Source: Spirochaetota bacterium (GTDB taxonomy: Bacteria; Spirochaetota; UBA4802; UBA5550). From it: a stretch of DNA of 64,000 bases. The stretch spans positions 1 to 64,000 of the forward strand of contig JBNKTL010000002.1 of NCBI GenBank assembly GCA_050298055.1, given 5' to 3'. The translations under genes were made by a program, and so were the position numbers. Positions 24,435-28,226 of the stretch are shown here, in pieces. Under the pieces are notes generated by a model. The model had not been told where the DNA came from. It saw only the letters and a list, made by a program, of their open reading frames with translations, and did no database searches. Position 1 is the stretch's first letter. Every line of letters begins with the position of its first letter.

Positions 24435-25352
24435 ATGAACAAAGAGATGATGAATACCAGAGAGGTTGCCGAGTTTCTGGGTATCCATGAAAAACAGGTC
24501 TATGCGCTGATCAAGGCAAAAAAGATACCCTGTACACGGGTCACCGGCAAATGGATCTTTCCCCGCGAGTTAATTTCACAGTGGGTTATTGACAGTGCCC
24601 GGCTTGAAACAAAGAGCGCAGCCGGAGAAAGACGGGAAGGAGAGAGCTCGCTCATGGCAGCGGGGAGTAATGACCCCATACTGGATGTTCTTTTGAGCAG
24701 GCTCACATACCAGAACCCGGCATCACATATTTTTTCAAGCAGTACCGGCAGCGTGTCGGGATTGAGGCTTCTGAGTGAAGGCGTGACGGACATTGCATGG
24801 TGCCACCTGGGAGATCCCAAAACCGGTGATTATAACACGGAATATATATGTTCATTTTTTCCGGAATCGGCAATAAGCATTGTTCATCTCTTTCAGAGGA
24901 AACTGGGCCTTCTCCTGTCAGAGAGGTACAGTGGAAAAATAAAAAATATTGAAGACATTGCGGGAAGCGGTGTGAAAATTATCAACAGGCAGGAGGGATC
25001 GGGTACCCGAAAATACCTGGACCACCTGCTGGAAGAGAAAGGAATAGACAGTCTTTATATTGAAGGCTATGATAACGAGGTAAACACTCATTTTGAGGTA
25101 GGTCTCTCCATTCTTTCCGGGAGAGCAGATGCCGGAATTGCCAGCATAGCCGTTTCCCGCCTCCTGGGCCTCTCGTTTATCCCCCTCCATAGTGAGAGCT
25201 TTGACATGGTCCTCAGACACTCAACCTTCTTCATGGAAAACATCCAGAAACTCATGGGAATCCTGAAATCGGAGGATTTCAGGGAAAACGTAAAGGCCCT
25301 GGGAAACTATGATTTCAGCGAATCGGGAAAAATCATCTTTGCCAGCGCGTAA
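24435..25352 (+). CDS. Excisionase-type HTH plus periplasmic-binding-like (molybdate/tungstate-type) transcriptional regulator
   Basis: N-terminal TREVAEFL.IHEKQVY.LIK...GKW.FP; GSNDP, GS..GL, INRQEGSGTR. Confidence 0.85.
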   Translation: MNKEMMNTREVAEFLGIHEKQVYALIKAKKIPCTRVTGKWIFPRELISQWVIDSARLETKSAAGERREGESSLMAAGSNDPILDVLLSRLTYQNPASHIFSSSTGSVSGLRLLSEGVTDIAWCHLGDPKTGDYNTEYICSFFPESAISIVHLFQRKLGLLLSERYSGKIKNIEDIAGSGVKIINRQEGSGTRKYLDHLLEEKGIDSLYIEGYDNEVNTHFEVGLSILSGRADAGIASIAVSRLLGLSFIPLHSESFDMVLRHSTFFMENIQKLMGILKSEDFRENVKALGNYDFSESGKIIFASA

Positions 25353-25476
25353 TCTCTGAAGAAGATAATTGAACCGCAAAGTTACTATGTAAAAAAAGTT
25401 AAAAAAAGTCAACCCTCCTTCTGAAATCTATGATAAGATTTCAGAGCTTACAAAACAAAAACAGGAGGATTGACTT

Positions 25477-26550
25477 ATGACAATTATAGTAGGAATCGAT
25501 ATGCATGTAAAGAACTTAGTATGTGAAATAGGGTATGGGAAGAATTTTCCCCATAAGCAGACTTTTTCAAATGATCTTTCAGGTCATACTGCACTATTTT
25601 TCTATATTGAGAAACTTAAGAAAGAACATAACACCGAAGATGTCTTAATTGGCTATGAAGCCAGCGGTCTCGGTTATGTACTGTATGATCGAGCAATTGA
25701 GAGAGGTTACAGGTGCGCGGTATTAGCACCAACTGAACTTTTACGAAGTGCGACAGGATTCAAAAAGAAAACAGATAAAAAGGATGCCAGTTATATTTAT
25801 GAGACTTTACGGGGCTATGTACTTGCCGGAAACAGGCTTTGTAATATCTGGATACCGGATAAGGAATTCAGAGAAGACCGGGATCTGGTAAGGACCTGGT
25901 TTGATGTGAGCGAAAAGATAACCAGGGTAAAAATTCAGATACAGACATTGTTAAAGAAATATGGGTTAAAAAGGCCTGATGATATTGAAAGCTGGACAAA
26001 AGCCTTTATAAACTGGGTAATGGGTGAAAGGAATCAACTTGGAAAGGGTTTCCAGGTCAGCATGGACAGCCTTTTCAGGCAACTGGATTCTCTTAATGCC
26101 GAATGTGAACTGATTGGAAAAGAAGTGCATGAGCTTTCCCGGAAGAAAAGATATAAAGAAATGTGCGATGCTCTTCTTGAAATTAAGGGTGTTGGTCTTA
26201 AAACATCCATGACCTTTATAACTGAAATAGGAGATATGAGAAGATTCCAGAACAGGAGACAGGTTGGGGCCTATATAGGTTTGGTACCCTCGTCCTTTGA
26301 AAGTGGAGAAGCAAGTGATCGAAAAGGAAGAATAACCAGGAATGGTCCTTACAGGTTAAGAAGCATTTTAAACCAGGCATTGTGGGCTCATCTAAGGTAT
26401 AATGGTGAAGAGAAGGAATTTTATGATAAAATAGTTGCCAGAAATCCAAAAAGGAAGAAGAAAGCAATTGTAGCCTGTATGAGAAGAATGGCTATCAGAA
26501 TGTGGCATGTTGCACATGACACTGAAAGTAAATTTTTAAAGGTGGCTTAA
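25477..26550 (+). CDS. IS110-family DEDD recombinase/transposase
   Basis: GIDMH, YEASG and KTDKKDA (DEDD residues); GVG..T, GLVPSSFESG (Ser motif); SD AGGAGG. Confidence 0.95.
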   Translation: MTIIVGIDMHVKNLVCEIGYGKNFPHKQTFSNDLSGHTALFFYIEKLKKEHNTEDVLIGYEASGLGYVLYDRAIERGYRCAVLAPTELLRSATGFKKKTDKKDASYIYETLRGYVLAGNRLCNIWIPDKEFREDRDLVRTWFDVSEKITRVKIQIQTLLKKYGLKRPDDIESWTKAFINWVMGERNQLGKGFQVSMDSLFRQLDSLNAECELIGKEVHELSRKKRYKEMCDALLEIKGVGLKTSMTFITEIGDMRRFQNRRQVGAYIGLVPSSFESGEASDRKGRITRNGPYRLRSILNQALWAHLRYNGEEKEFYDKIVARNPKRKKKAIVACMRRMAIRMWHVAHDTESKFLKVA

Positions 26551-26553
26551 TGT

Positions 26554-26720
26554 CTTTGTAAAGGCGTAAGCAGGCGTAATGTACAGCTGGTTGAGAACGA
26601 TTTGCGAGTGGTTTCACAAACCGGCGCAAAGAGTGTTCCAGCCCTCGGGCAAGTAAAGTGATCTGTTGTTATTACAACACGATCGAATAGCAGAGTGACT
26701 GTACTTACGCCTTTATAAAG
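26554..26720 (+). ncRNA. Putative bridge/seekRNA of the IS110 element
   Basis: 17-bp closing stem CTTTGTAAAGGCGTAAG / CTTACGCCTTTATAAAG enclosing two loops whose segments match the target flank and the circle junction. Confidence 0.8.
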
Positions 26721-26942
26721 AATAATAACTAATATACGGGTTGACATATTTTATACATAGCAGGCGCAAAGGGCGCAAAGTTTAAGATAATGTTAAATTT
26801 TGAGTTATTTAATCAAAAACAATTTCTTCAATTTAACATTCATAATTTAATATTTAACATTAATAAAACTCTTTCTTTGCGGGCTTTGCGCCTTGGCGGT
26901 TCAAAAATCTTCTTCTTTCCCCTGCTTCCCATCCCCCTCATC

Positions 26943-28226
26943 CTATTTATACTTCCCCGGCCATAACCTCTTCAGCCTCTCCCTGATAGCGGCTTCACTC
27001 CCCTCTCCCGACGGTTCATAAAAGACCCTGTCCCTGATTTCATCGGGAAGATAATTCTCATCCACAAAGTGTCCCTCAAAATCGTGGGGATACCTGTAAT
27101 CCTTTCCGTACCCCATCTCTTTCATCAGCCCGGTGGGGGCGTTCCTGATATGAAGGGGAATTTCATAGCTTGTGTTCCCGGCGAGGTCCTTTGCGTCCCT
27201 GATGGCGCGATACGAGGCGTTGCTCTTCGGCGATGATGCGAGGAATGTGGCGCACTGTGAGAGGATGATCTCAGATTCCGGCATCCCGATATTCTGTACG
27301 GCAGTCAGTGTGGAAACCGCGATATTGATTGCCTGGGGTGACGCGTTCCCGATATCCTCGGAAGCAAAGATCACCATCCTCCTGGCGATAAAGAGAGGAT
27401 CTTCACCGGCGAGAACCATCTTTGCCAGGTAGTAGACCGCCCCGTTGGGGTCAGAGCCCCTGAGGGATTTTATAAACGCGGATATTGTATCGTAATGCCT
27501 GTCCCCGGCCCGGTCGTAGGAGAGCGTACTGTTCTTTAACGCTTCTCCCAGGACACTGTCTGTTATCCTTCCGTCACCGGACAGGTTAAACGCAACCTCA
27601 AGTATGTTAAGCATCCTTCGCGCGTCCCCACCTGAGAGGGAGGCAAGTTTCTCCTTCACGCCCTCTTCCAGAGAGATGTTTCCGCTCTTGAGGACCTCAT
27701 CCTTCTCTACCGCCCTTTCCATGATCTTTATAAGATCTTCTTCGGAAAACCTGTTTAACCGGATCACCCTGGTCCGTGAGAGGAGCGGTGAAATAACACT
27801 GAAAGAGGGATTCTCCGTTGTTGCACCGATGAGAATAATATCCCCCGATTCAACCGCGCCCAGGACAGCGTCCTGCTGGGCCTTGTTGAACCTGTGTATC
27901 TCATCAAGGAAGAGAAGCGTCTGCCTGTTGTAAAGCCTGTTCTCCTTTCCCTTCTCAATAATTTTCCGCACATCGGAAACACCTGCGGATATTGCACTGA
28001 GAAAGTATGAATCAAGGGCAAGTAAATCTGCTATCAGACGGGCAAGTGTCGTTTTACCGGTCCCGGGATCACCCCAGAGTATGAGAGAGAATATTTTGCC
28101 GGTCCTGATGGTGGAATCCAGTATTCGTCCGGGGGAGAGGAGGTGCTCCTGTCCTATGAAATCTTTTAAGGTTTCAGGTCTGCACCTCTCGGCAAGAGGT
28201 TCCAGTTTGCTGTTATTATCCTGCAT
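26943..28226 (-). CDS. rarA: Replication-associated recombination protein A (MgsA)
   Basis: PLAE..RP, GDPGTGKTT, DEIHRFNKAQQD, GATTENPSF, SAFIKSLRGSD. Confidence 0.95.
   Translation of the reverse strand: MQDNNSKLEPLAERCRPETLKDFIGQEHLLSPGRILDSTIRTGKIFSLILWGDPGTGKTTLARLIADLLALDSYFLSAISAGVSDVRKIIEKGKENRLYNRQTLLFLDEIHRFNKAQQDAVLGAVESGDIILIGATTENPSFSVISPLLSRTRVIRLNRFSEEDLIKIMERAVEKDEVLKSGNISLEEGVKEKLASLSGGDARRMLNILEVAFNLSGDGRITDSVLGEALKNSTLSYDRAGDRHYDTISAFIKSLRGSDPNGAVYYLAKMVLAGEDPLFIARRMVIFASEDIGNASPQAINIAVSTLTAVQNIGMPESEIILSQCATFLASSPKSNASYRAIRDAKDLAGNTSYEIPLHIRNAPTGLMKEMGYGKDYRYPHDFEGHFVDENYLPDEIRDRVFYEPSGEGSEAAIRERLKRLWPGKYK

Follow-up and report, generated by a model that had tools for sequence, protein, structure and literature searches.

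The window analyzed here is a 64,000-nucleotide (nt) stretch of a Spirochaetota bacterium (NCBI GenBank assembly GCA_050298055.1, contig JBNKTL010000002.1, positions 1 to 64,000 of the forward strand), to which all coordinates below refer. At 25382-26763 of the + strand it carries an intact IS110-family element of the IS1111 type, 1382 bp long with one copy of its AG core counted at the right end, in which a transposase gene is followed by a structured non-coding segment. An earlier note on this DNA had read that segment as a bridge RNA or seekRNA with guides for both the insertion target and the donor ends, and the sequence elements it named are all found where it had placed them. Our analysis makes it very probable that the element indeed specifies such a 3' bridge RNA or long seekRNA, at about 26553-26721 of the + strand. 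The features on which the argument draws are as follows:

25375-25379, + strand: left target CGCAA, followed by the left copy of the AG core (25380-25381); 25375-25381 is identical to 26625-26631 of the predicted RNA
25382-25386, + strand: left end TTACT, the right donor half in the predicted circle junction, complementary to AGTAA at 26652-26656
25385-25396 and 25400-25415, + strand: left subterminal inverted repeats, with partners at 26749-26760 and 26738-26753
25477-26550, + strand: transposase gene (357 amino acids), an IS110-family DEDD recombinase
26553-26721, + strand: predicted bridge RNA or long seekRNA of ~169 nt, bounded by the closing stem
26553-26570 with 26704-26721, + strand: closing stem with 18-nt arms, 94% complementary, with one G.U pair
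26581-26586 with 26699-26704, + strand: GTACAG/CTGTAC stem inside the closing stem
26587-26642, + strand: target-binding arm, with an outer stem, an internal loop and an inner hairpin (26609-26623)
26601-26606, + strand: antisense target guide TTTGCG, matching bases 2-7 of the right target
26610-26622, + strand: module 1 hairpin GGTTT-CAC-AAACC, between the two target guides
26625-26631, + strand: sense target guide CGCAAAG, which has the sequence of the left target and AG core and pairs with the bottom strand
26652-26656, + strand: putative antisense donor guide, AGTAA, the complement of TTACT at the left end
26659-26685, + strand: inner hairpin of the donor loop, helix 6 (module 2 hairpin 26660-26683)
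26687-26693, + strand: sense donor guide ATAGCAG, with the sequence of the right end (ATAGC, then AG) and identical to 26757-26763
26738-26763, + strand: right end, with the subterminal inverted repeats, a -35-like TTGACA hexamer (26741-26746) and CATAGC plus AG
26764-26771, + strand: right target GCGCAAAG, a unit of the repeated REP-like motif described below

The source genome (199 contigs) contains at least five copies of the element, represented by one full copy and, at contig ends, by four fragments of the left end and four of the right. Each of the five left junctions reads ..TTGAACCGCAAAG|TTACTATG (also given as ..CCGCAAAG|TTACTATG) and each of the five right junctions CATAGCAG|GCGCAAAG, with four of the latter then running on into GGCGCAAAG; the flanks of the five copies diverge outside the common target motif. 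Each of the five occupied sites thus has the form CCGCAA[AG]GCGCAAAG, and the same genome has 10 exact empty counterparts, CCGCAAAGGCGCAAAG, and 17 empty sites that fit the two-target-guide pattern CGCAAAG-N-CGCAAA. The AG core is present once in the empty sites and at both junctions of the occupied ones, and there is no long target duplication. Taken together, the five sets of junctions and the empty sites therefore define the element as 25382-26763, its target as CCGCAA[AG]GCGCAAAG, and AG as the shared 2-nt core, in agreement with the insertion site and the circle junction that had been proposed from the single copy.

The target is itself a part of a palindromic element of ~140 bp (26764-26904) that resembles repetitive extragenic palindromes (REP) and miniature inverted-repeat transposable elements (MITE) and has copies on other contigs. 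The insertion lies in its left arm, TTGAACCGCAAAG GCGCAAAG GGCGCAAAG, of which the right arm (26875-26904) is an inverted copy; the genome contains 132 occurrences of the 8-mer GCGCAAAG. This REP-like element is positioned between two convergent genes, one coding for a HTH_17/PBP_like protein, which ends at 25352, and one on the - strand coding for an MgsA-type AAA+ ATPase, which ends at 26943. For the host genome, the REP-like repeat constitutes an insertion hotspot, with the 17 further empty sites matching the guides.

The insertion sequence is active-looking. In the public run X1, one contig runs along the unique left flank 25255-25379 (with a single base difference, at 25376) and passes from 25379 straight to 26762, so that exactly 1382 nt are skipped; this suggests recent mobility of the element, which appears to be polymorphic in the sampled population. 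A separate contig of 260 nt (run X3, record 18) joins window positions 25364-25381 to 26766-26950 with the element absent between them. Its left flank resembles that of another copy (as in locus L008), its right flank is the unique one of the window, and AT replaces GC at 26764-26765, which hints at a rearrangement between copies or at a different ancestral arrangement.

The assignment to the IS1111 type agrees with the organization of the element. Hallmarks described for this type are subterminal inverted repeats, 7-17 bp long and lying inward of the termini, and a longer non-coding end downstream of the gene (PMC11187229; PMC11208160). Here, one pair of repeats (25385-25396 with 26749-26760) spans 12 nt with 92% complementarity and lies 3 nt inside each end, and a second (25400-25415 with 26738-26753) spans 16 nt with 88% complementarity; the non-coding ends measure 95 nt on the left (25382-25476) and 213 nt on the right (26551-26763), the longer one lying downstream of the transposase gene and holding the predicted RNA. 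The transposase combines an N-terminal DEDD/RuvC-like domain (PF01548, 46.8 bits) with a C-terminal IS116/IS110/IS902 domain (PF02371, 78.5 bits) and scores 211 bits against the NF033542 model, 'IS110 family RNA-guided transposase' (cut-off 140). At 357 amino acids it is slightly longer than the 330-350 given as typical for the IS1111 group (PMC11187229). D8, E61, D100, D103, G268, P271, S276, and G277 are invariant in 56 homologues, and the acidic residues and the serine among them are candidates for the catalytic DEDD and Ser residues, judging by the G(L)xPxxxxSG motif given in PMC11187229.

A search of a large protein collection recovered 289 relatives of the transposase at E <=1e-3, the best of them 88% identical and most encoded on contigs of ~1.4 kb. 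An alignment of 56 of these (A1) was used to fetch loci for comparison: among metagenome sequences, 478 of 595 candidate stretches were relatives, and among genomes 141 of 275, the best 80 being kept from each. A search of genome contigs with the single protein gave no relatives, and the same search with A1 returned them. The transposases of the fetched loci (numbered with the prefix L) are 38-80% identical to the query, and the genomic ones come mostly from metagenome-assembled genomes (MAGs) of Planctomycetota and Verrucomicrobiota, with one 'Deltaproteobacteria' genome (57% identity). In 60 related genomes the protein search found only relatives of 28-31% identity. The 4307 plasmid records with IS110-family matches are all below 60% identity (25-32.3% among the matches listed), and the solved ISCro4 and IS621 recombinases align to residues 184-340 only, at ~51 bits.

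The right non-coding end has a strong propensity to fold: 26551-26761 reaches a minimum free energy (MFE) of -66.5 kcal/mol (z = -4.4), a value that no sequence among 200 dinucleotide shuffles attains. In the predicted topology, the long closing stem leads through the short GTACAG/CTGTAC stem to a three-way junction, one branch of which is the target arm, while the strands flanking the second hairpin form the donor loop. Both outer stems described in the earlier note are present, the closing one with arms of 18 nt rather than 17 bp, but C26704 is claimed by both, and one of the two helices is therefore a pair shorter than had been stated. The tetranucleotide AGTG, which had been singled out as a motif following each guide, does occur four times in the RNA (26607-26610, 26632-26635, 26657-26660, and 26694-26697); it is however specific to the clade of the window, the family pattern being NNTG, of which only the TG, located inside helices, is conserved.

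Conservation of this structure was examined in related loci. When the sequence following the stop codon was aligned for the window together with seven closer loci (A2, made with MAFFT independently of any structure), 57 consensus pairs were obtained, 18 of them compensatory. A covariance-type search model (R1) was built from A2, minus the RNAalifold pairs between the two target guides and minus a three-pair helix touching the core. The pairing of TTTGCG with CGCAAA inside the target loop, which appears in the MFE structure, was taken as a side effect of the tandem-repeat target and likewise left out of the model. R1 matches 78 of 99 loci and 40 of 61 further family loci (118/160), in every case on the + strand and downstream of the gene for the transposase; within the source genome it matches the window copy only, because the other copies are collapsed at contig ends. 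A second model (R2), built from 79 R1 matches, found the RNA in 20 more of 32 family loci that were re-searched (12 of which previously had a partial R1 match or none), with E up to 0.013, and contig ends truncate several of the loci in which it had no match. Neither model matches L011-L016, the six loci from related genomes whose transposases are 28-31% identical, and R2 has no match in the enterobacterial plasmid loci L183 and L184, labelled in PLSDB only as 'IS110 family transposase'. Finally, in an alignment of 75 distinct sequences (A3), standard pairs make up 91.9% of the cells; the corresponding values are 69.0% for shuffles and 32-41% for slid controls. Changes on both sides are seen in 41 of the 49 pairs, and none of 500 shuffles attains any of these measures, although such counts lean towards structure because A3 was fitted to the model. 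The target arm (helices 3-5) is 97.5-97.9% paired, with 10 of its 14 pairs changed on both sides, and helix 6 of the donor loop is 93.2% paired over 12 pairs, 9 of them changed on both sides. Three pairs at helix ends are G.U in 65-73 of the 75 sequences and would be C.A if read on the other strand, which identifies the + strand as the folded one.

Within this scaffold, the two segments predicted to act as target guides covary with DNA outside the element. Four 12-nt segments per model match, anchored on the conserved helices, were compared with the flanks over distinct guide-flank pairs from ~90 distinct elements, with shuffled flank assignments as the control; the ends of the elements in single-copy loci were inferred from conserved terminal motifs, and as related sequences are not independent, the z-scores overstate significance. 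The sense target guide follows the left flank, to which it is 83-94% identical per position over the five bases preceding the core (z 11.3-14.2, n=96); the full five match in 73 of 99 loci and four of five in 19 more (5.3% and 15%, respectively, in shuffles). Identity falls to 11% at position -6, indicating that this guide comprises 5+2 nt. The antisense target guide follows the right flank along a diagonal from its last base opposite base 1 to its fourth-last base opposite base 4 (53-65% Watson-Crick, z 4.5-7.6, n=88). Counting only matches with all four anchors, 53 of 84 loci have at least four consecutive pairs in register 0 or +1, against 13.0 +/- 2.7 (maximum 22) in 1000 shuffles. Over all 88 loci, register 0 is found in 36, +1 in 17, and -1 in 1, while 34 have none. 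Register +1 is that of the window and its clade; the one-base offset of TTTGCG, noted earlier as a caveat, is real, and represents one of two registers found across the family.

The core is likewise reflected in the guides. The sense target guide ends in AG in all 91 distinct guide sets and the sense donor guide in 90 of 91, whereas the two bases that follow the antisense target guide vary, being CT, the complement of the core, in 42 of the 91 sets, CC in 17, CA in 8, and AG in 7, the last group corresponding to the clade of the window. Several Planctomycetota MAGs assembled from long reads have 4-14 copies of related elements (L117, L118, L122, and L123; L134-L138; L154-L167; L120, L121, L133, and L171-L180). 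Within one such genome the guides are constant and the left flanks differ at one or two positions, e.g., CCGTTGCAG, CCGTCGCAG, and CTGTTGCAG in L134-L138 vis-a-vis the guide GTTGCAG. Such flank variation under one guide shows that some mismatches are tolerated.

The donor loop has the same layout as the target arm, namely an antisense guide, a hairpin, and a sense guide ending in AG. Its sense guide is nearly invariant, reading ATAGCAG in 87 of 91 distinct guide sets, and equals the right end of its own element in 94 of 94 loci, a figure that is partly circular because the search pattern for the ends admitted no more than four heptamer variants. More informative are two compensatory variants in which guide and right end have changed together, to ATAGGAG in L026 and to ATAACAG in L126. 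TTACC predominates at the left end (44 of 72 loci), and the AGTAA-type guide pairs with this end at 4-5 of 5 positions in 55 of 71 loci, a share no higher than in shuffles given the near-invariance of the end. In the corresponding matrix two cells stand out, guide position 9 with left-end base 2 (z 5.0) and position 6 with base 5 (z 4.5), and within the clade an A-T pair (window and L022-L024) is replaced by G-C (L025 and L026). Accordingly, of the two matches to the circle junction proposed for module 2 in the earlier note, that of ATAGCAG is supported by the two compensatory variants, while that of AGTAA to TTACT is plausible from complementarity, short of a demonstration. Covariation with flanks or junction, the test suggested in the earlier note, is seen for both target guides and the sense donor guide, but does not rise above shuffles for the antisense donor guide.

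These properties of the donor loop bear on an alternative that we consider unlikely, though the most durable of those weighed here, namely that the RNA is a seekRNA for the target alone, with the ends recognized by the protein through the subterminal inverted repeats and the 'donor loop' being a conserved scaffold that happens to resemble nearly invariant ends. The prevalence of TTACC at the left end, with antisense complementarity at the level of shuffles, and the near-fixation of ATAGCAG, which leaves little room for covariation, are compatible with it, as are the 12-nt and 16-nt subterminal repeats that a protein could read; further, Siddiquee et al. report only target matches in IS1111-type seekRNAs (PMC11187229). 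Against this alternative stand the two independent double changes in L026 and L126, the two signals in the antisense donor matrix, and the shared layout of the two loops, and donor loops have been predicted in members of the IS1111 group by Durrant et al. (PMC11208160).

A second alternative concerns which flank each target guide reads. The target in the window is an internal tandem repeat, as the earlier note had cautioned, and as a consequence each target guide also matches the other flank, so that the assignment rests on the relatives. Taken literally, module 1 would use a sense guide GGCGCAAAG (26623-26631) to read the right repeat (G+GCGCAAAG, 9 nt) and the antisense TTTGCG to read the left CGCAAA; both matches exist in this one element, and the 9-nt match is the longer. 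This arrangement is very improbable, as the guides follow the opposite flanks wherever those of the relatives differ. The sense guide equals its own left flank plus AG in L022 (CGCGGAG), L023 (CGCAGAG), L025 (CACGGAG), L037 (GAAGGAG), L038 (AGTATAG), and L032 (GTATTAG). On the antisense side, TTCGCG of L024 fits only its right flank (A|CGCGAA), TTCGTG of L102 fits its right flank exactly (G|CACGAA), TCTGCG of L027 accompanies G|CGCAGA, and L025 matches at 5/6; the left flank fits worse in all four, and these relatives therefore decide between the options left open by the repetitive target. Moreover, clean diagonals are seen only for sense with left and antisense with right, the swapped comparisons (antisense with left, sense with right) giving scattered cells of z <=5.0 and no diagonal. 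Module 1 thus matches the insertion site with both of its guides, as first read, but its sense guide reads the left target plus the core (7 nt) and its antisense guide bases 2-7 of the right target. Finally, it is scarcely credible that the fold is a stabilizer or terminator in the 3' untranslated region, or a single-stranded DNA transposon-end structure pairing with the target as in IS200/IS605, for although a long stem 3' of a gene could serve mRNA stability, no terminator-like sites were found, the loop segments covary with DNA outside the element, which is unexpected of a stabilizer, the protein belongs to the NCBI 'IS110 family RNA-guided transposase' group and not to the HUH enzymes with DNA guides, and RNA co-purifies with relatives of this type (PMC11187229).

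The covarying structure and the agreement of guides with flanks support a bridge RNA or seekRNA with a target and a donor module, in both of which a sense guide containing the AG core is combined with an antisense guide, as the earlier note had it. Several observations weigh against this reading. The transcription, processing, and protein binding of the RNA are predictions from sequence. A Rfam scan of 25300-26950 (E up to 1) gave nothing over 26553-26721, with two sub-threshold matches elsewhere. A3 is fitted to the model, as stated above, though the independent eight-sequence alignment points the same way. On the target side, 31 of 84 loci have no run of at least four antisense pairs in either register, each target guide of this one element also fits the opposite flank, and the antisense target guide of the window skips base 1 of the right target and is unable to pair with the core, since AG occupies the place of the CT of most relatives. 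On the donor side, the 94/94 agreement carries the circularity noted above, full 5/5 pairing of the antisense donor guide is found in 18 of 71 loci as against 19.5% in shuffles, and L027 and L102, both of the clade, mismatch at one of its positions.

In comparison with characterized systems, the element is closest to those with IS1111-type seekRNAs, i.e., ISEc11, ISPa11, ISKpn4, and ISPst6 (Siddiquee et al., 2024; PMC11187229). It shares with them the location of the non-coding region downstream of the transposase gene, the subterminal inverted repeats, and the size of the RNA, ~169 nt against the 148-172 nt listed for long IS1111-type seekRNAs (Table 1 of PMC13604230). The order of the guides also conforms: in IS1111-type RNAs the guide complementary to the top strand is described as coming first and that complementary to the bottom strand second, the reverse of the IS110-type (PMC11187229), and here too the top-strand match lies 5' of the bottom-strand match, with the two target matches overlapping at the insertion point. 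A further likeness is that no internal promoter is evident, which implies a promoter formed at the circle junction. As in ISPa11, a repeated extragenic element serves as the target, and the Pseudomonas putida elements ISPpu9 and ISPpu10 are likewise described as multicopy at one position of a repeated extragenic sequence (PMC12288879; preprint 10.64898/2026.03.19.712850), a resemblance by description only. Unlike in the seekRNAs of ISEc11, ISPa11, ISKpn4, and ISPst6, a donor-binding loop is also readable here, and the present RNA is known from sequence alone. What sets the element apart from the validated IS1111-type members is low protein identity (25-32% to the listed plasmid IS110-family transposases), and we take it to be a known kind of system in what looks like an undescribed branch.

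The IS621 bridge RNA (Durrant et al., 2024, PMC11208160; Hiraizumi et al., 2024, PMC11208158) provides a parallel for the two-loop architecture: there also, each of two loops has one sense and one antisense guide, the sense guides include a 2-nt core common to target and donor, and the recombinase is of the DEDD plus Ser kind. The wiring differs, however. The IS621 RNA lies upstream of its gene and has CT as its core; in each of its loops the sense guide leads, and the two loops occupy successive stem-loops. The present RNA lies downstream of its gene and has AG as its core; the antisense guide leads, and the target arm branches off the donor loop within one closing stem. When the bases after the antisense guides were compared with the non-cognate left halves for handshake guides like those of IS621, no consistent pairing was found in the main register. 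The most unusual features are those of the clade (the window, L022-L027, and L102), viz., the +1 register, AG instead of CT after the antisense guides, and a target arm nested in the donor loop. That these amount to a variant pairing geometry peculiar to the clade, with AG in the sense of the core behind all four guide segments, is doubtful, if somewhat less so than the alternatives weighed above; were it the case, only the sense guides and the protein would serve to recognize the core and hand over strands, and the RNA would be an unusually compact and differently wired scaffold among bridge recombinases.

Scans for transcription signals found no promoter-like site on the + strand just upstream of the RNA and no terminator-like site, consensus scans being weak evidence either way. 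The ends themselves offer a candidate for a junction promoter. TTGACA at 26741-26746 lies 17 nt from the right end, and abutting the ends places it at an 18-nt spacer from TACTAT of the left end (25383-25388). Across 76 distinct elements, TTGAC occurs 15-18 nt from the right end in 68, and a TAnnnT hexamer of the left end, mostly TACCAT, falls at a 16-18 nt spacer on abutment in 52. We accordingly envisage a cycle in which the element would excise as a circle, by analogy to IS621, ISEc11, and ISPa11, with the abutted ends creating a promoter from TTGACA of the right end, the 18-nt spacer, and TACTAT of the left end. This promoter would drive the transposase mRNA, from whose 3' tail the RNA might be cut. 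The RNA-bound DEDD/Ser recombinase could then align the circle junction CATAGC-AG-TTACT with genomic CCGCAA-AG-GCGCAAAG, and strand exchange at the AG core would insert the element into the left arm of the REP-like repeat.

Two loci present unusual arrangements of the ends. In L026, a metagenome contig, a right end CATAGGAG directly abuts a left end TTACCATGTAAG... (1567-1692), and the contig also has a genomic left flank; this right end-AG-left end junction is a tandem copy or a circle. In L023 (2672-2741), the right end following the RNA is without the usual terminal TACATAGCAG and is succeeded by an inverted right-end-like sequence, CTGCTATGTA...GTCAACCC, which may represent two elements tail to tail or a damaged end.

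IS110/IS1111 recombinases are under development as programmable DNA-insertion tools, and each well-read natural system therefore adds a design example. The map obtained here is complete and internally consistent in covering the element, its target and core, both predicted loops, and the putative junction promoter. It extends to a clade that occurs in metagenome contigs and in genomes of uncultured Planctomycetota, Verrucomicrobiota, and 'Deltaproteobacteria', with a protein at most 32% identical to the listed plasmid members. The family data further indicate that the right-target guide can take two registers and that a donor loop can be read in an RNA of the IS1111 type, while the known picture of how IS110/IS1111 elements work is unchanged by these findings.

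The 5' untranslated region of the transposase gene (25406-25476) also has a potential for structure. The segment AAGTCAACCCTCCT (25406-25419) is 93% complementary to AGGAGGATTGACTT (25463-25476), which includes the ribosome-binding site, and between these arms lies a perfect 10-bp hairpin (25420-25429 with 25436-25445). Comparable arms can be seen in relatives, and the arrangement in the window probably gates translation of the transposase.

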